Shown here piece by piece: positions 1 to 9,043 of a stretch of DNA of 64,000 bases. The position numbers and the translations under genes were made by a program. The notes beneath the pieces were generated by a model. The model saw nothing but the letters and a program-made list of their open reading frames with translations, made no database searches and was not told where the DNA came from. Source of the DNA: Escherichia coli (GTDB taxonomy: Bacteria; Pseudomonadota; Gammaproteobacteria; Enterobacterales; Enterobacteriaceae); NCBI RefSeq assembly GCF_003991155.1, contig NZ_CP031294.1; one strand, written 5' to 3'. Numbering within the stretch: the first letter of the stretch is position 1; every line of letters starts with the position of its first letter.

Positions 1-1056
1 ATGAGCGAAAACGGCAATAAAAACATAGCGATCGTTGAAGCATTTTCAGAAACAGATAAAAAGACAGGCGAAGTTGTTACGTTGGTTCCTAACACTAATA
101 ACACTGTTCAGCCTGTTGCTTTGATGCGTCTGGGCCTCTTCGTTCCGACGCTGAAATCGACATCCAGAGGAAGAAAGGGGCAAATGGTCTCTATGGATGC
201 CTCTGCTGAACTCAAACAGCTGTCTCTGGCAAAAGCCGAAGGGTACGAAGACATAAGGATCTCTGGCCTTCGGCTTGATATGGATAACGACTTTAAAACG
301 TGGGTGGGAATAATCCACGCGTTTGCCAAACACAAGGTTGTTGGCGATACTGTCACGTTGCCGTTCGTTGAGTTTGTAAGGCTGTGTGGCATTCCGACCG
401 CCAGGTCATCAGCGAAGTTACGCAAACGCCTGGACAGTTCGCTAAGCCGTATTGCCACAAATACCATCTCGTTCCGTAGCAAAGGCTCTGATGAGTTTTA
501 CGTAACGCATCTTGTGCAAACGGCAAAATATAGTGTCAAGCACGATACGGTCGAACTGAAAGCAGATCCCAAGATTTTCGAACTCTACCAGTTCGACAAA
601 AAGGTTCTTCTGCAACTCCGGGCTATAAACGAACTCTCAAGAAAAGAATCCGCTCAGGCGCTTTATACTTTTATTGAAAGTTTGCCGCCTGATCCGGCAC
701 CAATATCACTAGCCCGTTTACGCGCCAGACTTAATCTGACAAGTCGCACTATTACTCAGAATGCGACGGTAAGAAAGGCTATGGAACAGCTGCGAGAGAT
801 AGGATATCTCGATTACACGGAAGTTAAGCGCGGAAACTCGGTCTACTTCGTCATCCACTATAGGCGGCCAAAGTTACGCCAGGCACAAATATCAACAAAA
901 ATCGATAATGATGAGACGGAATATAGCCTCCCAGATGAGAATCAAGATGACATTATCGACGTTGTGCCTGACGAAAAAGAAGGCAAAATGGTCATGTTGA
1001 GTAAAGAAGAACTGGCGCTTCTCGAAGAGTTGCGCAAGGCAAAGACTCGCAAATAG
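1..1056 (+). CDS. Putative plasmid-type replication initiator (RepA-like, iteron-binding)
   Basis: 351-aa ORF starting at window position 1, immediately followed by a dense array of direct and inverted short repeats (iterons). Family assignment is by context only, not by recognised motif. Confidence 0.5.
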
Positions 1057-1059
1057 CCC

Positions 1060-1540
1060 AACCACTGTAGTTAGTAGTAAGGCTCACTATCCACTGTAGT
1101 GAGCCTCACTTATATCTGTAATTCGCTATCCACTATAGTGAGTATCGTTATCTGTTGATAACCACTGTAGGCAGTAGAATGCAAATACTGAATTAAATGT
1201 TAGTGATCACTAACACTGATGAAACAAGGGCTGCGAGGTTAGTGGTCACTGGGTATCTTGGAAAATTTACTGTCTATAGTGGTTGTTGTCGCCCTCATCT
1301 TTGAGCGTATCCACTGTGGCGAGTGGATATCCACTGAAAACAGCAAAGGCTTACTCACCATAGTGGATACCCGCTGGACATCTCACTCCAATACTCACCA
1401 TAGTGGTTGTTTGATGCGAATGAAAGGTTGTCTACTCGCTACAGTGGTTAGCAGATATGTAGGAAGGGTTTGTTACTGACTACAGTGGATAATGAGCTGG
1501 ATACGAATGCGGTGAGCAGACTACTCACCGCAGTGGTTGG
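1060..1540. repeat. Iteron array: about 11 copies of a ~14-19 bp motif (core CCACTGTAGTGAG / CTCACCATAGTGGAT) in both orientations
   Basis: Read directly: copies near 1061, 1087, 1127, 1161 in one orientation and 1270, 1308-1335 (dyad), 1351, 1392, 1431, 1476, 1520 in the other. Confidence 0.75.
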
Positions 1541-1545
1541 TGCTA

Positions 1546-1758
1546 TTAGTGTATTTTCTTCAACAGACCCCAAAGTGTTCCGGCTTTTGTAGTCAGTTTT
1601 CCTGTTTCTGGATCGTACATACGCCATTCACGCCGCTGGTGGACGATATACCCATCTTCACGTTCCAGACGCTCAAGAATGCCAGGCTGCTTGAAACCCT
1701 TAGCACGCCAGTAGCCGCTTGTTTTCTCGATTTCCAGACCTGCCAGTGTTAATGCCAT
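1546..1758 (-). CDS. Hypothetical protein
   Basis: 70-aa ORF abutting the downstream gene (shared coordinate 1758); no recognisable motif. Confidence 0.3.
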   Translation of the reverse strand: MALTLAGLEIEKTSGYWRAKGFKQPGILERLEREDGYIVHQRREWRMYDPETGKLTTKAGTLWGLLKKIH

Positions 1759-2093
1759 TATCCAACCTCCTTGCAGTCATCGAAAAGGTAGCTTTGCTGA
1801 GAAGCGTGAACGCCATAGAAGCCCTTGTATTTGTTGTATACGAAGTGGTCTTCTCCGACGCCGGTTAATTTGCCATTACGATTTGTGAGATATGGGGATG
1901 ACAACACTCGATCGTCACGCACAACATAGAACTGGTCGCCGCTGTCTACGACCATCGCTCCATATGGTGCTTTTATGACGTCGGTAAGAGCGCCATTCTT
2001 AACGTCGGCTACAGACATTTCACACTGATAAACAGTGGTGTCGGCTACAACGATCGAAGAAAGGAACAACAGCGCGAATGGGATGGCCTTCAT
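1758..2093 (-). CDS. Hypothetical secreted protein
   Basis: N-terminal signal-peptide-like stretch MKAIPFALLFLSSIVVA. Confidence 0.45.
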   Translation of the reverse strand: MKAIPFALLFLSSIVVADTTVYQCEMSVADVKNGALTDVIKAPYGAMVVDSGDQFYVVRDDRVLSSPYLTNRNGKLTGVGEDHFVYNKYKGFYGVHASQQSYLFDDCKEVG

Positions 2094-2308
2094 GCTGCCA
2101 CCTCTTTGATTACATCAAATGCTGAATTAAATACGAGCACGATAGCCAAAGCGTTTATGACTACGTCGTGCACCGGGGAAAAGACTTTACGAATGACACC
2201 AGTGAAAATGCAGTCGATGACAAAAGCTATTGAAACGATGAGTAACAAGTATTCAATAAAAATCTTCATGATAGGTAGATACTAACTTATATAAATTTTA
2301 CTGTAAAC

Positions 2309-2584
2309 TCACTCAAAAGTGCTGATGCTTAAAATACGCTCAAGATGTTCGGCATCTTCATCACTGATTTGTTGAGTCTCTTCTACGTACCAACAGTTGC
2401 CGTTATGCCAACAAACACCATCATCATCAACCATCACTGAATCAGCGTCATGACCTGTATATTCAACGAGAATACGCTGGATCAGCGCGTCAGTTTCTTC
2501 GTCGTTAAGGCCATCGGCTTTGACCATAAAAAGCGGAAACACGTCATAGACAGTGCTGGTAACGATTCGAACTAAAACTCTCAT
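2309..2584 (-). CDS. Hypothetical protein
   Basis: 91-aa acidic ORF in the minus-strand gene run. Confidence 0.35.
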   Translation of the reverse strand: MRVLVRIVTSTVYDVFPLFMVKADGLNDEETDALIQRILVEYTGHDADSVMVDDDGVCWHNGNCWYVEETQQISDEDAEHLERILSISTFE

Positions 2585-2639
2585 GTGTTTTTCCTTTTGT
2601 GGTTAGTGTTTACTTATTTTGTTAGTTATGAATAGGCGA

Positions 2640-3065
2640 TCAATCTTCTTGTTTAGGGAAAAACTGTTCAATAACTCTGTCAACGGCTGTGTCTATATGG
2701 AGTAGATGCCACACAACCATATCTTTGCTTCCCATGCCTTGTGTGAATATCACGTCATACTTACGCCATGCGCAGTGGAACCAATATGCTGAGTCATCAA
2801 TTGGTAAATCCTCTCCCGCCTCTTTGAAGTATTTCAGCAGCATTGCCTGCTCTGCCGTTGGCGTTGGACCTATTTCCTGAGCGTACATACGGATGAATCG
2901 CTGCCAGTCTGTCTCGTCGGGGGTTGGATCTGGTGGGGTCATTTCTGCGATAGCGTTTCGTAGCTGATGCGCCCAATCAGGTTCAGGAAAGCCTTTTGCT
3001 ACTTCATCATCAATAACATCCAGAGCCACGTTTGCGGCATCGTAGAGTTTCTTAATAACTGTCAT
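2640..3065 (-). CDS. Hypothetical protein
   Basis: 141-aa ORF preceded by an AAGGA-type RBS and the conserved palindromic upstream motif at 3077-3100. Confidence 0.45.
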   Translation of the reverse strand: MTVIKKLYDAANVALDVIDDEVAKGFPEPDWAHQLRNAIAEMTPPDPTPDETDWQRFIRMYAQEIGPTPTAEQAMLLKYFKEAGEDLPIDDSAYWFHCAWRKYDVIFTQGMGSKDMVVWHLLHIDTAVDRVIEQFFPKQED

Positions 3066-3110
3066 GTTTTCTTATCCTTTTAAACAAATTGTTTTCTTAA
3101 TAAGATAATT

Positions 3111-3140
3111 GCGATAAAAAAGGCGTCCAACTGGACGCCT
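3111..3140 (-). terminator. Rho-independent terminator (minus strand)
   Basis: Hairpin AGGCGTCC-AACT-GGACGCCT followed on the minus strand by a T-run (plus-strand AAAAA at 3116-3120). Confidence 0.5.
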
Positions 3141-3156
3141 GAACTTTTTAGGGGAG

Positions 3157-3987
3157 TTATTTCACTGTAATGAAAGGAGTGTTAGCCCCTTGAGTCATGT
3201 ACTGCGGTAACTGGCCATTCCATTTATTGATGGCTTCCAGTTCCATAACGTTCGGGTTTTGACGCAGAGCTTCACCGCGCAGACGAATGGCGTCCGCTTC
3301 TGCTTGCGCACGAGCACGGATAGCATCAGCTTCACCATTAGCCTGTTCACGTAGCATATTCGCCTCAGCTTTACGTTGTTCAACTTCCTGCTGACGTTGC
3401 AGAGTACGCTGGTTAGCCGTTACTTTGGCGTTAATAGATTCAATGACAGTTTTTGGGTAATCAGGCTTTCCAACCCATGACAGGCTCAGTACCTCAATAC
3501 CAACCGGAGACATCTCTTTCTGAATATCTTTCAGTGCGTTGTCCAGCAATTGTGCCTTACCACCGTCGATAAATGAGTCAGTGGTCATACGGCTGGCCAA
3601 ACGGTTTAGAGAGTCGGCAATTTTCTGACGCAGATCTGATTCGGTGATATCGTCTACGCCTTTGCGATAGGTCTGGAACACCGTCGTTACCTTGTCACGA
3701 TTAACCAGATACGCAACGCCAATTTTGTGACCAATAGCAGTACCGTCACTCATCTGGAATGTGAACGGCTCGTCGTAGGTCTTCATTTGTTTGAAGGTCG
3801 GGAATACGTAAAGTTCGGTGTTAAGACCTGTCCATTGGCGACCAACGCCAACCACTTCACCAATCCCTTTGTCTTCACCTAATTTGTTTACTTTGATGCC
3901 AACGTATCCAGGCTCCACGCGATCGCAGCCAGTAAGACCCATTGTGCAAATAGCCGCCAGAGCAACTGCAAGTAAACCTTTCTTCAT
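3157..3987 (-). CDS. SPFH/band-7 (HflK/YqiK-like) lipoprotein
   Basis: Signal peptide with lipobox LTGC; C-terminal Ala/Glu/Arg/Gln-rich coiled region typical of the SPFH family. Confidence 0.55.
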   Translation of the reverse strand: MKKGLLAVALAAICTMGLTGCDRVEPGYVGIKVNKLGEDKGIGEVVGVGRQWTGLNTELYVFPTFKQMKTYDEPFTFQMSDGTAIGHKIGVAYLVNRDKVTTVFQTYRKGVDDITESDLRQKIADSLNRLASRMTTDSFIDGGKAQLLDNALKDIQKEMSPVGIEVLSLSWVGKPDYPKTVIESINAKVTANQRTLQRQQEVEQRKAEANMLREQANGEADAIRARAQAEADAIRLRGEALRQNPNVMELEAINKWNGQLPQYMTQGANTPFITVK

Positions 3988-3990
3988 TAC

Positions 3991-4191
3991 TTATTTCCCC
4001 TTTGCTTTGATTAATGAGTTGATAAACTTACGACCAGCAATAAGACCGATTACAGGAGCACCAAAACCAACGATAACTCCAAACATGACGGCTAAATCAC
4101 TCTTGGTAGAAATCAGCGACGGAACCAGTAAACCGTAGATGAGAGCCACTGAAAGGCCTGTGGCTACTGCCAATAGATAGATTTTGATCAT
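3991..4191 (-). CDS. Small integral membrane protein (possible NfeD-like partner of the SPFH protein)
   Basis: 66 aa with two hydrophobic helices; stop lies 4 nt before the SPFH start. Confidence 0.4.
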   Translation of the reverse strand: MIKIYLLAVATGLSVALIYGLLVPSLISTKSDLAVMFGVIVGFGAPVIGLIAGRKFINSLIKAKGK

Positions 4192-4251
4192 GTGTTTTCC
4201 TATGTGGTTGTTATGCGAAAATAATAAGTAAGTGCTTATATATTTTCAAGA

Positions 4252-4279
4252 GATAAAAAAGGCGTCCTGTGGACGCCTT
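4252..4279 (-). terminator. Rho-independent terminator (minus strand)
   Basis: Hairpin GGCGTCC-TGT-GGACGCC with a T-run on the minus strand (plus-strand AAAAAA at 4255-4260). Confidence 0.5.
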
Positions 4280-4283
4280 GTGT

Positions 4284-5357
4284 TTACTCTTCTACTGACT
4301 CGGTGGGGTTGTCTTTTGCTCTTCGGTCGTCGATTGCCTGCAAAGCCGCAATGATTTCAGCCAGTGGCTTCTCCCGATACATCTCGACGATCTGCGATTT
4401 GGTGTATTTCTTGTCACCAATTTCAACTCGCCCGCTGGCGTTCTTTGGCAGGTATCCTTCTTCCAGCATGTACTCGACGAGCGATTCGATAACGTCGAGG
4501 CCACGAGTAGGATCGAAGTAGAATTTCCAGGTGCATTTGCCATACGGTGGTGCAACTTTGTTTTTGATGCATTCTGCGCCTACGTCCTGGCCGATCTTCT
4601 CTTTACCATCCTTCATCACCGATGCACCAAGACGGATACGTACAGAAGCGTAGAACTTCGGTGAATCTCCACCTGGCGACGTAGTAGGGTCGCCAAACAT
4701 TACACCGATTTTTGTGCGAACCTGATTCAAGAAGATGATGCAGGCGTTGTATTTGCGTGCCCACAAAGCCAGAGTAGGGAAGTTCGCACTCGTCGCACGA
4801 GCCAGTGCCGTATTGTCGTTCATGTTTAGCTGATCTTTGTCTTTGGCAGTGCCTTCAGCCATCTTTTCGAACTTCTCGGCTTTGGAGTTCGGAACCATAG
4901 ACGCAAGAGAGTCAGCCACGATACAGATTGGTGCTGATTCGGGGATAAGCTCTTCATCACGAACCAATTTAAGTATTGTGCCGATCAACTCTACAGAGTC
5001 TTCGAAGGTATCTGGCTGCTTGTATACCCACTGACCGTCATCCTCATCTGCGTTCAGGCCATTGGCGACAGCCAGGCCAACGTCAAAACTGTTTTCATGA
5101 TCGAGGAATACCGCCAGACCATCTTGTTTTTGAGCGGAGATCATCGCTGCTGTTGCAAGGAACGTTTTCCCTGCACTTGGAGGACCGAATACTTCGACGA
5201 TACGACCACAAGGGAAGCCGCCATCGTAACGACCAGAAATAGCTTTGTTTAACGGTGGAAAGCCTGTATCAATCCAATGAGTTACTTTCTGAATTTCGTC
5301 GTTGCTACCGATTTTCTTTTTCAGAGCAAGTGCCAGTGCGGATTTTCCTTTTGCCAT
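4284..5357 (-). CDS. RecA-family recombinase (RecA/UvsX-like)
   Basis: Walker A GPPSAGKT, Walker B-like ICIVADS, RecA-like core of 357 aa. Confidence 0.65.
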   Translation of the reverse strand: MAKGKSALALALKKKIGSNDEIQKVTHWIDTGFPPLNKAISGRYDGGFPCGRIVEVFGPPSAGKTFLATAAMISAQKQDGLAVFLDHENSFDVGLAVANGLNADEDDGQWVYKQPDTFEDSVELIGTILKLVRDEELIPESAPICIVADSLASMVPNSKAEKFEKMAEGTAKDKDQLNMNDNTALARATSANFPTLALWARKYNACIIFLNQVRTKIGVMFGDPTTSPGGDSPKFYASVRIRLGASVMKDGKEKIGQDVGAECIKNKVAPPYGKCTWKFYFDPTRGLDVIESLVEYMLEEGYLPKNASGRVEIGDKKYTKSQIVEMYREKPLAEIIAALQAIDDRRAKDNPTESVEE

Positions 5358-5359
5358 GA

Positions 5360-5632
5360 TCAGGCTCCTTTTGTTTCGTTGATTCGTTTTAAAGCGGCGG
5401 ATTCATCGAATACAATCGCATCGTGGTTAAGGAGTCTGGATACACGAGCGAGGATTTTTACGACCTGCTCGCTGACTAATCCAAACTCGCGATCTGTCGC
5501 TTTCATTCCGGCAGCGCCTAGAATTGACGGCAGTGCGATGACAGCGTACTCACCGTGATAAAAGACAATCTCTTTTGCCAGTTGGGCAGGGGTGGTTGTA
5601 GCGCCATTGATAATCGATTTAAGCATTAGCAA
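5360..5632 (-). CDS. Hypothetical protein
   Basis: 90-aa ORF tightly packed between the recombinase and flap endonuclease genes. Confidence 0.35.
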   Translation of the reverse strand: MLMLKSIINGATTTPAQLAKEIVFYHGEYAVIALPSILGAAGMKATDREFGLVSEQVVKILARVSRLLNHDAIVFDESAALKRINETKGA

Positions 5633-6621
5633 TACCTTTCGAATGGAAGAACAAACACTTCAAGGTCTTCAAGGAACGAACGGAAATTCAGCTCGTAGCA
5701 CAGTTGCTCGAATGCTTTCACGTCACGATTGCCTTTGATTGTTTCGATTTCGGTAGGCGGAAACTTCGTCTCAATCAGGTTCATTAGCGTGATGTTTCTC
5801 TTGAACGCTTCGAGCATTCGACAGCCTGTTTTCTCGTTGAAGGCATTCTTCGCTAGTTTGTTGAAGGCGGTCTTATGACGCCCTTTATTAACCACGATTG
5901 AGCCGTCGTTGATGCCGCGTACCATCGTTGCGACACTTCCCCATTCATGCAGCAGCTCTTTCGCACCGCCAGCACCAATGCCACCAACACCGCTAATGTT
6001 GTCCGAGTTATCGCCTTGTAATGCTTTTGCTTCCAAAAATGCGCGAGGCGTGGCGAATCCTGTCAGCTCCGCAAATTGCTCAAAATTAACCTGCTTGTTT
6101 TTGGCGTCTTCACGCAGGCTTACCCAGCTTACGTTTTCACGAACTAACTGAAGCCAGTCGCTATCGCCTGTTAACAGATAGATGTGTTCAACGGTTGGCT
6201 GCGGTGCCATGCGGGATACCAGCAGCCCGGCCAGATCATCCGCTTCTGCATCTTTTGCAATGAGTTGGGTAACTCCAAGCGCGGTCATCATTTTGAGGAT
6301 GTATGGCTTCTGGATAGCAAAGCCTTCCTTCATCTTTTTCATATCAGGATCGTCGTCGCGATTTGCTTTGTAGTCCGGGTAAAAGTCGCGACGCTTGTCA
6401 CTAAATCCATCCCAAAGAATCATAGGTCGGGCATGGAGGATGGAGGCATAACGACGGACGTTCTTAACAAAGCCGAAAGCAGCCTGTACTTCCATTTCGC
6501 CGTTGTGCAATTTGTCAGATTGTTGGTGGTAATAACCCAGGCTATTGCCATCTACGAAGAGATAATTCACCGGTACATTCCTTCCAAAAAGTAAGGCGTC
6601 CGTAGACGCCTTACTGGTCAC
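5626..6621 (-). CDS. Flap endonuclease / 5'-3' exonuclease (RNase H-like, FEN family)
   Basis: Acidic catalytic clusters (AKDAEADD, TGDSDWLQL) and an H3TH-like glycine-rich segment (NISGVGGIGAGGAKELL). Confidence 0.7.
   Translation of the reverse strand: MTSKASTDALLFGRNVPVNYLFVDGNSLGYYHQQSDKLHNGEMEVQAAFGFVKNVRRYASILHARPMILWDGFSDKRRDFYPDYKANRDDDPDMKKMKEGFAIQKPYILKMMTALGVTQLIAKDAEADDLAGLLVSRMAPQPTVEHIYLLTGDSDWLQLVRENVSWVSLREDAKNKQVNFEQFAELTGFATPRAFLEAKALQGDNSDNISGVGGIGAGGAKELLHEWGSVATMVRGINDGSIVVNKGRHKTAFNKLAKNAFNEKTGCRMLEAFKRNITLMNLIETKFPPTEIETIKGNRDVKAFEQLCYELNFRSFLEDLEVFVLPFERYC
6584..6612 (-). terminator. Rho-independent terminator (minus strand)
   Basis: Hairpin AAGGCGTC-CGTA-GACGCCTT with a minus-strand T-run (plus-strand CCAAAAAG). 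Confidence 0.5.
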
Positions 6622-6630
6622 GTAATGGGA

Positions 6631-7659
6631 TTACAGAGAGTCCAGCTCTCTCAGTAGGTCATCCAGACCTTCATCTTCCGTCGCAGATGCGGTTGCTACA
6701 GATGTCGCTGCGACTGCTTCAGACTCTTTGACTGATACGGCAACGGCAGCGGAACTTGCCTCTGGTTTAAATTCAGTTTCAACGGCACGGAGGATTTCTT
6801 CATCAACCAGACTGGTTGGTTCAGAAGCCGGTGTGTGCGCGGTTGCTACAGCCGTCGCTCCTTCTGTATGACCAGTGACAGAGCCAAATCCAGGCAGTGC
6901 CGCGGTCGATGTTTTCGCGGTAGAGGAAATTGCTGGTGCAGATGCAGAGGCAGTTGGTGCTGCGATGCCAATCAGACGACCCATAGTGCGAACTGTCGAG
7001 AGAAGACGAGTTTCATCAGCCTGATTTGCGTATGCGATCAGGTCATGCTGGGTATTCCAGAATTTATCTTCGATATCGCCTTTGTAGACTTTACGCTTAG
7101 GCGAGACGTCATATTTGGTATCGCGACCAGAGCCAGTACGTTTAATCAGGAATGCGTAGCCTTCCTCTTTGCTCAGTGGATTGCCGATATCATCAGCGAT
7201 GTCTTCGGTGATTGCTTTGCAGATATCATCGAATACAGTAGACGGCAGCTCGATTAACTGGCATTTCTCAGCATCTGCGAAATCCTCACGAGCAGAAAGA
7301 ATGCCGTTGACCAGGTAGCGAGGCGTGGCACGCATTTGACCGATGCGTTCTTCCATTGCTTTGTTACCCTTGTGACGAGCGCGACCTTCCATCACCATTT
7401 CGCATAGCTGACAAGCGCGACCGTGAGTATGTTGCTCACAAATATAAGCGTTGGTTGCTTCTTTACCTTCCTCGTTCTGATACTTAACGTAGTGCATACC
7501 GAAAGTCTGGAAGAACTTACCGTTTGGGTCGTCTTTATTCGGGAAGATGCGGATATAGTTGACGCCGTCTTTTAAGCGAGTCAGATCAACGTTGTTACCA
7601 CGTTTGGCGGCAATGTCTTCACGAGTTTTGTTAAGCAAATCAAGTAATGTCTTAGACAT
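6631..7659 (-). CDS. Putative ssDNA-binding protein (gp32-like)
   Basis: Cys/His cluster CEQHTHGRACQLC resembling a zinc-binding subdomain, Ala/Ser/Thr-rich linker and acidic C-terminal tail (EDEGLDDLLRELDSL); sits between nuclease and polymerase genes. Confidence 0.4.
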   Translation of the reverse strand: MSKTLLDLLNKTREDIAAKRGNNVDLTRLKDGVNYIRIFPNKDDPNGKFFQTFGMHYVKYQNEEGKEATNAYICEQHTHGRACQLCEMVMEGRARHKGNKAMEERIGQMRATPRYLVNGILSAREDFADAEKCQLIELPSTVFDDICKAITEDIADDIGNPLSKEEGYAFLIKRTGSGRDTKYDVSPKRKVYKGDIEDKFWNTQHDLIAYANQADETRLLSTVRTMGRLIGIAAPTASASAPAISSTAKTSTAALPGFGSVTGHTEGATAVATAHTPASEPTSLVDEEILRAVETEFKPEASSAAVAVSVKESEAVAATSVATASATEDEGLDDLLRELDSL

Positions 7660-7776
7660 GTGTTTCTCCTTGTTGTGATTTGGCCGATGGCGCTATGCGC
7701 GTTGGGCTTTCGTTCATTCGTGGCTCTTTCGAGCTGTTAAATGATAGATCAGTACTTACTTATTATCTATCAAAAA

Positions 7777-8208
7777 TCAACGGGGAGTAATAAAGCGTTC
7801 AGAGCCTAATCGCTCTAATTCAACGATGGCCATCTTTGACGCCTGAACGATCATGTCTCGGCGATGCGAAAAGGCGGCGACAGCATGTTTGTATATGTCT
7901 GCGATGTGCCGTGCTTCATCCAACTTCTGCCGTTTAGACAGATACTGTGGGTTTGTTTTAACCTTAGCGTCCAGTACAGATTCGTTGAACTTAATGCCAT
8001 TCATACTCAAGTTCTTACGCTCTGTGTCGTATAGCTTTGCTTCAACAGCTTCAAGGTTAAGTTTTGCTTCTGCGACACTTCTTTCTGCATGGGCGAGTTT
8101 TGAGCCATATTCCATCAACAGGCGGGGTTGTCTACGCCAGACTTCTTCCAGATTGTCTCGGTCAAACTCGAGATCGGACATGATTTTTTCGTATATATTG
8201 GTGCTCAT
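7777..8208 (-). CDS. Hypothetical protein (predicted coiled coil)
   Basis: 143-aa ORF with no recognisable catalytic motif. Confidence 0.4.
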   Translation of the reverse strand: MSTNIYEKIMSDLEFDRDNLEEVWRRQPRLLMEYGSKLAHAERSVAEAKLNLEAVEAKLYDTERKNLSMNGIKFNESVLDAKVKTNPQYLSKRQKLDEARHIADIYKHAVAAFSHRRDMIVQASKMAIVELERLGSERFITPR

Positions 8209-8452
8209 TTTGATAGATTCTCACTTATCATGATGTATTGATTATAGAGCTTAAATTAACGCTAATCCAAGATAGACCGTTATGCTATCTGCTCGAACAA
8301 CCATTTCTTAGGGCTTGTTAATTGCAGGAGTTTCTCCTATTGTGTTCGTGGATTTAATCGAAAGAAATATGGGTTTTGAAAAGGATAGAATCTTCATGTT
8401 TCCGCACAGCATTTATCATTAATTATTCAAATTAAAAGGAAATATTATCCTC

Positions 8453-9043
8453 ATGTTTGATATTTATAATTTATTAAAGCAAATAGCAGAGAACACGAAA
8501 CCTGACCATTCTGCTATTTGGATTGCTGTAATATCTTCAATATCAGCTATTGCAGGCGCTGCTATTGGTGCATATTTGTTATATCGAGGCACAAACGAAC
8601 AAATTAATTCTGCTGCTGCTATTGAAGATAAAAAATTAAAAGCAACTATAATTACCGCAGAAAGACTTCGTTGGCTTCAAGAGCTAAGGTCAAGAAGTAG
8701 TGAGTTTTATGCGAATCTCGATATGAATTACAACTTATTAAAACGACCGATAAATCCGCAGGCAATCCCGACATATCAACAAGCTGGGGACGAACTGGCG
8801 AAAATTGTAATGATTCAATGCAATCAGATAATTGTATTGCTTAATCCTAAAAAAACTCATCAGCAAACTATTTTTAATAAATGTAATGATGCACTTAAAT
8901 TTTTCATGGAATGCGTCGAAGAAAAAAATAATGGTAATCTGAACTTTGATGATTCCAAGTATGCGGAAATAAAAAACGATTACTTTAATGCTTTAACTGA
9001 AATAGGTATTGAAACTTGGAAGCAGATAAAAGAGTTAAGTTGA
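8453..9043 (+). CDS. AT-rich accessory gene: membrane-anchored protein of unknown function
   Basis: Plus-strand ORF inside a minus-strand block; visibly lower GC than flanks; hydrophobic helix at residues ~20-45; own downstream terminator. Confidence 0.5.
   Translation: MFDIYNLLKQIAENTKPDHSAIWIAVISSISAIAGAAIGAYLLYRGTNEQINSAAAIEDKKLKATIITAERLRWLQELRSRSSEFYANLDMNYNLLKRPINPQAIPTYQQAGDELAKIVMIQCNQIIVLLNPKKTHQQTIFNKCNDALKFFMECVEEKNNGNLNFDDSKYAEIKNDYFNALTEIGIETWKQIKELS

Follow-up and report, generated by a model that had tools for sequence, protein, structure and literature searches.

A two-gene cassette for a predicted SPFH/Band 7 lipoprotein and a two-helix membrane protein in an SSU5-like phage-plasmid of Escherichia coli

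Introduction

SPFH proteins are universal, yet their functions in bacteria are poorly defined. HflK/HflC cages FtsH and influences the stability of the lambda CII protein, and the designation hfl (high frequency of lysogenisation) reflects the historical link of this pair to phages. The canonical SPFH-NfeD pairs of the QmcA-YbbJ type, in which an SPFH protein is accompanied by a small membrane protein, face the cytoplasm. Here we describe a pair of adjacent genes for an SPFH lipoprotein and a small membrane protein in a stretch of 64,000 nucleotides of Escherichia coli contig NZ_CP031294.1 (hereafter the window, to which all positions refer unless stated otherwise), which is part of a phage-plasmid related to Salmonella phage SSU5.

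For the SPFH-NfeD systems, nfeD followed by the SPFH gene is the usual gene order, and the classification of prokaryotic SPFH proteins by Hinderhofer (2009) mentions neither lipoproteins nor phages (PMC2636767). In a 2026 study of Pseudomonas aeruginosa, its nine SPFH genes were essential for none of the tested phenotypes (PMC13086221), and a phage-genome paper of the same year states that the reason for the presence of a phage SPFH lipoprotein 'remains unclear' (PMC13239085). In public records, the larger gene of the pair described here is already named 'SPFH domain-containing protein' or 'lipoprotein', so the core observation of a preliminary description made from the sequence of the window, an SPFH lipoprotein on a phage-plasmid, is known at the annotation level and does not amount to a discovery.

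Gene organization and the cassette as an insertion/deletion unit

The pair comprises two minus-strand open reading frames (ORFs), one for 66 amino acids (4191..3991) and one for 276 amino acids (3987..3157); the stop codon of the first and the ATG of the second lie 3 nt apart, which makes translational coupling likely. The window is 100% identical to the E. coli plasmid NZ_OW849379 and, across the SPFH locus, 81% identical to Salmonella phage SSU5. The carrier is thus an SSU5/pHCM2-like phage-plasmid, in agreement with the preliminary description, which had proposed that the pair is borne by a mobile element and followed by a strong terminator; the terminator scan placed an eight-pair hairpin with six G-C pairs directly behind the pair (3140..3121, minus strand), followed by the T-run TTTTTTAT.

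The hairpin core GGCGTCC-N3-4-GGACGCC is present in two copies in the 64 kb (0 expected), and both copies flank the SPFH pair. The same two flanking hairpins were found in every fetched SSU5-type locus that contains the pair and is covered at both borders. Klebsiella phage ST13-OXA48phi12.3, otherwise collinear, lacks the pair and contains one hairpin right after the recA-like gene, which aligns to the upstream copy (4259..4279). At this empty site, the sequence before the hairpin corresponds to the recA-side junction of the occupied sites, and the sequence behind it corresponds to the SSU5 sequence that follows the second hairpin. The pair is a discrete insertion/deletion unit of ~1.14 kb bounded by a direct repeat, i.e. 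a duplicated terminator hairpin.

Autonomous accessory cassettes of phages are known as morons (sensu Hendrix and colleagues), and the ~1.14-kb unit, with its own terminator and with a promoter-like block that is conserved in SSU5 (TTGAAA...TATCAT), fits the definition of a moron. The GC content of the cassette (0.44-0.49) does not differ from that of its flanks, and thus gives no compositional sign of recent foreign origin.

The SPFH lipoprotein

The preliminary description of the 276-aa product as an SPFH/Band 7 lipoprotein was borne out in the SPFH/Band 7 identity and in the lipoprotein signal; the absence of a Band_7 domain, which would have refuted it, is clearly excluded. Band_7 (PF01145) was matched with E=2.6e-30 (106.2 bits with a cut-off of 23.6; residues 23-209, profile positions 2-176 of 176) and was the sole Pfam family over its cut-off, with Flot reaching 19.9 bits vs a cut-off of 27. 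The product also matched PHROG 200 'lipoprotein' (3e-108), where it covers positions 80-359 of the 379 positions of the profile, as expected if the fused form (see below) is common in phages. The top NCBIfam match was HflC (2e-07) and the top PDB sequence match was HflK (E=0.007); the NCBIfam equivalog cut-offs were missed, with 30.2 vs 134.4 bits for HflC (TIGR01932) and 18.7 vs 159.4 bits for HflK (TIGR01933).

An AlphaFold2 model (109-sequence alignment; predicted local distance difference test, pLDDT, 92.8; predicted template modelling score, pTM, 0.73) comprises a signal/anchor helix (residues 2-18), the SPFH alpha/beta domain (21-176), a helix of 65 residues (179-243), a short helix (245-254) and a tail. 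Foldseek searches of this model against the PDB aligned the whole chain with probability 1.00 and 14-18% identity to HflC (7vhq_G, E 2.5e-14), prohibitin-2 (PHB2; 8rrh_B, 3.5e-14), HflK (7vhq_E, 4.2e-14), erlin (9vvj, 3.5e-13), stomatin (e-11) and flotillin (e-9), and QmcA (8z5g) was matched with 9e-8. As modelled, the product has the full protomer architecture of the cage-forming SPFH proteins. The tail carries K-W256-N-G258-x-L-P261, the most conserved motif of the SPFH lipoprotein family: among 109 diverse members (alignment A1), W256 never varies, and conservation reaches at least 90% at both G258 and P261. The motif is a candidate cap or oligomerisation element. The cassette, as well as all 79 related viral loci considered below, contains a single SPFH gene and no paralogous pair.

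The N-terminus, MKKGLLAVALAAICTMGLTG-C21-DR, represents a canonical lipoprotein signal with a positive n-region (MKK), a hydrophobic core, the lipobox L18-T-G-C21, and Asp at position +2. A strict lipobox was found in at least 97 of 150 diverse family representatives; in some members, a plain N-terminal transmembrane anchor takes its place. Among the enterobacterial homologs with recognisable lipobox, 98 of 103 contain C-D-R, i.e. Asp at +2, though the lipobox itself varies, and their signal peptides are 57% identical vs 96% for the mature part. In the Lol pathway of E. coli, Asp at +2 is the signal for retention in the inner membrane (Lol avoidance). The lipoprotein signal peptide would place the SPFH domain in the periplasm, and the closest Foldseek matches are SPFH proteins that have this domain on the non-cytoplasmic side of their membrane. 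We infer that the SPFH protein is anchored at the inner membrane and faces the periplasm.

The two-helix partner and its natural fusions

The 66-aa product comprises two hydrophobic stretches (residues ~3-27 and ~33-53) that are separated by the five-residue polar turn STKSD, and a basic C-terminal tail, as read from hydropathy. It matched PHROG 1130 'membrane protein' (2e-25), its database homologs are all named 'hypothetical protein', and no match was obtained in Pfam (E<=0.1), NCBIfam or PADLOC. At the turn it carries P24-S-L-I-S28, the family form of which is P-x-(L/M)-(I/V)-S. In each of the 79 related viral loci (79/79), a two-helix ORF with this motif immediately precedes the SPFH gene, at a distance of -20 to +3 nt. 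The locus scan with the tighter alignment A2 covers close relatives (at least 77% identity), and more distant contexts were collected by tblastn of deposited phages. In virulent phages, hidden Markov model (HMM) searches detected partner homologs upstream of the SPFH gene in N4-like phage S6 (3e-19), in KpS8 (4e-16) and in jumbo phage PHA46 (8e-10). The partner is under purifying selection (omega 0.13-0.29), which is weaker than the strong constraint on the mature SPFH protein (omega 0.02-0.05). With this selection and its conserved place upstream of the SPFH gene, the 66-aa ORF is a genuine gene. The partner gene is unannotated in the RefSeq records of RCS47 (~3770-4003 of the fetched locus L086) and phiP27 (~4075-4265 of L087), and should be added to both.

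Of the NfeD-like small membrane protein that had been postulated beside the SPFH gene, the small membrane protein stands, as the two-helix product encoded immediately upstream; its likeness to NfeD does not. Neither NfeD (PF01957) nor any other Pfam or NCBIfam family was matched, the N-termini of six natural fusions were also negative (E<=1), and the 13 residues behind the second transmembrane helix are too few for the OB-fold that defines NfeD. The partner is a member of an unnamed family of two-helix hairpins (PHROG 1130), and is not an NfeD protein.

In-frame fusions of partner and SPFH protein make up ~12% of the best family representatives (~18 of 150, at 50% clustering). These are uninterrupted single genes on phage-like contigs and encode, in this order, the hairpin, a basic linker, a lipobox-bearing helix and the SPFH domain, an order that requires a periplasmic SPFH domain, in that the hairpin would run in-out-in and the third helix in-out. 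In alignment A3, the pairs encoded by two genes are collinear with the fusions, the turn Ser is at least 90% conserved and the lipobox Cys is invariant in 26 of 26 rows. Fusion P0136 was modelled with three helices at its N-terminus, ahead of the SPFH domain. The lipobox Cys behind the third hydrophobic helix is kept in all 18 fusions (P0125, P0135, P0136, P0144, P0146, P0152 and others); as scored by manual reading, this is not a significant enrichment (18/18 vs ~88% of the unfused members, p ~0.09). With this Cys kept throughout, cleavage at the internal lipobox is conceivable, and under the wider reading considered below the fusions may be polyproteins that are cut by Lgt/LspA into the same two subunits.

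In a single case, on a phage-like contig with small same-strand ORFs (L097), the fusion gene P0152 (710-1807 of the contig) follows, two genes away, a gene (218-520) that encodes an Acb2_Tad1_hairpin domain, which is an anti-CBASS/anti-Thoeris sponge domain.

Distribution and evolution

In a library clustered at 50%, the SPFH family comprises 2,816 clusters at E<=1e-3 and 195 clusters at E<=1e-30. Relatives were found on at least 557 IMG/VR contigs and in 377 deposited phage genomes, including phages of Pseudomonas, Klebsiella, Erwinia, Escherichia, Burkholderia, Caulobacter, Prevotella and Bacteroides; Rhizobium phages are also represented, alongside the other phages of environmental bacteria (Caulobacter, Erwinia). 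The temperate carriers include P1-like, lambdoid and SSU5-like elements, and the strictly virulent carriers include N4-like phages, Bruynoghevirus, Vequintavirinae, Ounavirinae, jumbo phages, phiCbK-like and crAss-like phages, and Lak megaphages; in the virulent phages, the SPFH gene is surrounded by early genes and genes for nucleotide metabolism. A compact SPFH lipoprotein is hence kept in hundreds of phage genomes of varied lifestyle, often with a tiny coupled or fused partner.

The pair itself was found in four unrelated temperate backgrounds. These are, besides the SSU5-like elements, the P1-like phage-plasmid RCS47 (in an accessory slot between upl and tRNA-Met/ban), the lambdoid Stx-converting phage phiP27 (between the repressor region and xis/int), and the P2-like phage P88 (in the early operon). 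Of the complete E. coli genomes, 290 of 5,426 (~5%) contain the cassette, in 205 plasmid and 101 chromosomal places.

Among eight phage pairs, the mean pairwise identity is 72% for the mature SPFH protein and 28% for the partner. The DNA of P88, RCS47 and phiP27 is 80-100% identical only from about the Cys21 codon to about position +780 of the SPFH gene, with background identity elsewhere. The SPFH gene of the window is near-identical to that of phage Cyrano (synonymous divergence, dS, 0.006), and the two partners differ (dS 0.63). The mosaic boundary in the window separates partner and signal peptide (3925..4191) from the mature SPFH protein (3157..3924), and identity that changes at the junction of signal peptide and mature protein indicates that the partner and the signal peptide recombine separately from the periplasmic part. 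Fast point evolution of the partner was considered as another source of its divergence and was rejected in view of its omega; divergence beside near-identical SPFH genes represents recombinational replacement.

In Caulobacter phage CcrSwift, the gene for an SPFH lipoprotein (1531-2328 of locus L093) is located two genes from an RtcB-like gene (2657-3825), which may be coincidence. The P. aeruginosa SPFH gene paFlo8 is located inside an rtc RNA-repair locus (PMC13086221).

Proposed function and alternative explanations

The explanation preferred here, with a probability of roughly 55%, is that the two genes form an accessory cassette (moron) for a periplasm-facing inner-membrane SPFH assembly around the hairpin partner. 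Upon removal of the signal peptide, the lipidated Cys21 would tether the SPFH protein to the periplasmic face of the inner membrane, where it would self-assemble into a homo-oligomeric ring or cage, similar to the assemblies of HflK/C, prohibitin and erlin, which are likewise non-cytoplasmic. The partner hairpin would have both ends in the cytoplasm, with the conserved five-residue turn as its sole periplasm-exposed part, and would serve as a dedicated subunit in the membrane, or as a client, under or inside the SPFH assembly. In infected or lysogenic cells, the complex would enclose a patch of the inner membrane, and the cassette would be expressed from the resident phage-plasmid as well as in lytic growth.

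With respect to the role of such an assembly, the modulation of host envelope functions or of superinfection that had been suggested in the preliminary description is plausible. Exclusion of the DNA of superinfecting phages, or protection of the inner membrane, is tentatively favoured, at clearly less than even odds, in view of the moron-type autonomy of the cassette, its accessory slots in four temperate lineages, the predicted location of its products at the inner membrane and periplasm, and the place of the SPFH gene among early genes in virulent phages, a parallel to T4 imm/sp. Modulation of membrane quality control of the FtsH type is a less probable role, and what probability remains is left to another function in membrane takeover.

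Several observations weigh against this explanation. No experimental study of any phage SPFH lipoprotein was found in the literature, and neither protein matched any defence model of PADLOC-DB v2 (E<=0.1). The promoter call is a consensus match in a scan that overall was not enriched over shuffled sequences, so a promoter function follows from position and conservation only. In Bruynoghevirus U47, phiEa104, a crAss-like phage and CcrSwift, the SPFH gene is not preceded by a partner gene; the partner is therefore frequent but not obligatory. Positive selection on the partner was not seen gene-wide, i.e. there is no gene-wide arms-race signature. The residue at +3, behind Asp+2, is Arg, which is a caveat on the predicted retention, and some homologs from enterobacterial phages contain Glu, Tyr or Asn at +2, for which the same rule predicts the outer membrane.

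An SPFH gene of phage PhiSH19, which is located beside an annotated 'superinfection exclusion protein', was followed up as a lead and rejected: its SPFH lipoprotein is related only distantly (E=1e-11 with the family HMM), and the 'Sie' protein is soluble, without transmembrane segment and without match to the partner HMM.

The main alternative is an HflK/C analogue, i.e. a periplasmic-side modulator of the host FtsH that would alter the turnover of a CII-like regulator or of membrane proteins, and hence the lysis-lysogeny decision or the efficiency of infection. HflC and HflK rank with the closest full-length matches to solved structures and gave the top sequence matches, the topology that we propose is the same, and many carriers are temperate (SSU5-like, P1-like, lambdoid, P2-like). 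We consider it unlikely, however, since the identity to HflK/C is 16-18% with scores far under the equivalog cut-offs, there is one SPFH gene and no K/C pair, and the family is common in strictly virulent phages, which make no lysogeny decision; furthermore, prohibitin and erlin match equally well, which points to the fold class and not to HflK/C specifically. A canonical NfeD-SPFH operon, with the small protein as the NfeD-type partner of a stomatin-like SPFH protein, would share the gene order, in that the gene for a small membrane protein immediately precedes the SPFH gene and is coupled to it. The negative NfeD searches and the short C-terminus of the partner, the structural match to the NfeD-partnered QmcA, which is weaker than those to HflK/C, prohibitin and erlin, and the lipoprotein signal, which places the SPFH protein on the membrane side opposite to that of NfeD-partnered stomatins, make such an operon very improbable.

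The precedent for a surface or virulence lipoprotein of lysogenic conversion, which would act on the animal host as a TLR2 agonist in outer-membrane vesicles, is PM0222 of Pasteurella multocida: this prophage-borne, HflK/C-like protein of 25-35 kDa is found in outer-membrane vesicles, elicits TLR1/2 signalling, and its deletion attenuates virulence (PMC9872710). PM0222, the only candidate relative that has been studied experimentally, is likened to the phage SPFH family by description and not by sequence comparison. The promoter-like site and the terminator of the cassette would also suit this explanation, as in many genes for lysogenic conversion; the presence of the family in virulent phages and in phages of Caulobacter, Rhizobium and Erwinia, which a role in mammalian hosts cannot explain, and Asp+2, which predicts retention at the inner membrane and not surface exposure, render it improbable. 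A pair related to lysis, spanin-like or holin-regulating, and serving envelope disruption or lysis timing, has to be regarded as highly unlikely. The likeness to two-component spanins, i.e. an inner-membrane protein and a lipoprotein from adjacent or overlapping genes, is superficial, and one database record names a homolog 'RIIB lysis inhibitor'; the neighbours are genes for replication and recombination, and not for holin or endolysin, the lipoprotein is a 276-aa SPFH fold with Asp+2 and not a short, proline-rich outer-membrane o-spanin, and the partner has two transmembrane helices and a five-residue periplasmic turn, where an i-spanin is a type II protein with a periplasmic coiled coil. 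The legacy annotation as a membrane-bound 'putative serine protease' (P88, phiP27, RCS47, phi1026b and other records) has the record labels in its favour, and is hardly credible: domain and fold analysis gave SPFH over the whole chain and no protease domain. The label probably derives from the old naming as 'membrane protease subunit, stomatin/prohibitin homolog', and should be dropped.

A wider reading of the preferred explanation, which is doubtful at present, is a widespread membrane-takeover module of phages, consisting of a minimal homo-oligomeric, periplasm-facing SPFH nanocage and a dedicated, interchangeable two-helix subunit. If true, virulent and temperate phages would deploy the module early to seal or compartmentalise the inner membrane of the host, and it could block the entry of competing genomes, neutralise membrane-targeting effectors of abortive infection, or capture FtsH. 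If the module blocks superinfection or controls FtsH, it would represent a new class of proteins in phage-phage competition or host takeover, and this would explain the presence of the gene in ~5% of the complete E. coli genomes, in most cases as part of SSU5-type phage-plasmids, which clinical Enterobacteriaceae commonly carry. As a minimal phage SPFH system under clear selection, the pair could be a tractable model for the effect of an SPFH cage on membranes.

Features of the locus and its surroundings

The positions of the cassette features are summarized in Table 1. The neighbours of the cassette are genes for a recA-like protein, a 5'-3' exonuclease, a gp32-like single-stranded DNA-binding protein and a DUF7238 protein, as assigned by Pfam and database records.

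Table 1. Predicted features of the SPFH cassette and their positions in the window
Feature	Position	Strand	Basis or remark
Upstream boundary hairpin AAGGCGTCC-ACA-GGACGCCTT + TTTTAT	4259..4279	-	Terminates the recA-like gene (terminator scan) and delimits the cassette on the left
Promoter-like site TTGAAA-17 nt-TATTAT (10/12 of the sigma-70 consensus)	4221..4249	-	Between the upstream terminator and the partner gene
Shine-Dalgarno-like AGGA, 6 nt before the partner ATG	4198..4201	-	Sequence reading
Partner gene, 66-aa putative inner-membrane helical hairpin	3991..4191	-	Hydropathy, PHROG 1130
Shine-Dalgarno-like GGGGA of the SPFH gene, located in the 3'-terminal part of the partner gene	3996..4000	-	Sequence reading
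SPFH/Band 7 lipoprotein gene, 276 aa	3157..3987	-	Pfam, PHROG, AlphaFold2, Foldseek
Predicted signal peptide (residues 1-20) and Cys21 (codon 3925..3927), followed by Asp22 (+2)	3925..3987	-	Lipobox
SPFH alpha/beta domain (residues 23-209 by Pfam, 21-176 in the model)	3361..3921	-	Pfam, AlphaFold2
Single long Ala/Glu-rich helix (residues 179-243), counterpart of the 'wall' coiled coil of SPFH cages	3259..3453	-	AlphaFold2, Foldseek alignment
C-terminal motif K-W-N-G-x-L-P (residues 255-261)	3205..3225	-	Alignment A1
Downstream boundary hairpin AGGCGTCC-AGTT-GGACGCCT + TTTTTTAT	3121..3140	-	Cassette terminator, right border

The recA-like (UvsX-like) gene beside the cassette (4284..5357, minus strand) is an allele without intein. 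The recA-like gene of phage Cyrano and of many E. coli plasmids holds an intein of 422 aa (Intein_splicing and LAGLIDADG_3), which is located at the P-loop (GPPSAGK|C...|TFLAT); an intein-bearing copy is found at 4689-7025 of locus L002.

On the 3' side, the cassette is followed by a run of small minus-strand genes (1546..3065). These include the DUF7238 gene (2640..3065; Pfam 5e-38), a 91-aa ORF, a gene for a 59-aa protein with two transmembrane-like segments (2090..2269), a gene for a 111-aa protein with a signal-peptide-like N-terminus (1758..2093), and a 70-aa ORF (1546..1758), which occupies the place of a phage Cyrano gene annotated as 'P1 Cra protein'. The stretch from recA to cra is variable among SSU5-like relatives.

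Elsewhere in the window, a patch of low GC content (8200..9000; 0.33-0.36 vs ~0.47 nearby) contains an ORF on the opposite strand for 196 aa (8453..9043, plus strand), with an N-terminal hydrophobic segment and without significant match in Pfam or PADLOC. Four clustered tRNA genes (Ser-TGA, Thr-TGT, Tyr-GTA and Asn-GTT) are located at 21251..21808 (minus strand). An Rfam scan of positions 1-9000 gave no match.

Comparison with known systems

The phage SPFH protein resembles HflK/HflC (PDB 7vhq, 7wi3, 9cz2) over the full length, i.e. in the SPFH domain, the long wall helix and the C-terminal element, as well as in its N-terminal membrane anchor and, as predicted for the phage protein, in an SPFH domain that faces the periplasm from the inner membrane. 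It differs in that it is predicted to be lipid-anchored, whereas HflK/HflC is transmembrane-anchored, in the low identity (16-18%), and in its single gene in place of a K/C pair, which implies a homo-oligomer. It also has a dedicated hairpin partner with two transmembrane helices, and is phage-encoded and mobile. Prohibitin (PHB1/2) and erlin (1/2) are equally good full-length structural matches (8rrh, 9o9z, 9vvj) and, like the phage protein in its proposed topology, face a non-cytoplasmic compartment (the intermembrane space and the lumen of the endoplasmic reticulum); in contrast to it, they are eukaryotic, hetero-oligomeric and transmembrane-anchored, and are without a small hairpin partner.

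The SPFH-NfeD operons (QmcA-YbbJ, 8z5g; YqiK-YqiJ; FloA/FloT-NfeD; SPFH1/2/5 of Hinderhofer) are similar in the order of the genes, with that for the small membrane protein preceding the SPFH gene, and in occasional fusions, and by analogy the two systems likely share the logic of a scaffold with an enclosed membrane partner. In contrast to these operons, the phage partner has no NfeD OB-fold, and the phage SPFH protein is predicted on the opposite face of the membrane.

In the PHROG catalogue, the phage pair belongs directly to families 200 and 1130, for which no function is given and the annotations of which state neither their linkage nor their fusion or topology. The classical membrane proteins for superinfection exclusion are Imm/Sp of T4, SieA of P22, Sim of P1 and gp15 of HK97; these have no relation in sequence or fold to the phage SPFH pair. 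Morons and exclusion proteins are similar to the pair in having their own terminator, beside a promoter for which the pair has a promoter-like site, and in their insertion between genes that are adjacent in a relative, and furthermore in the location of their products, predicted for the pair, at the inner membrane or periplasm and in their presence in temperate and, as for T4 imm/sp, in virulent phages. From these comparisons, we infer that the phage pair represents a known type of system, i.e. an SPFH scaffold with a small membrane partner, in a non-canonical form that is lipid-anchored, periplasm-facing, homo-oligomeric, equipped with an unnamed hairpin, phage-borne and modular.

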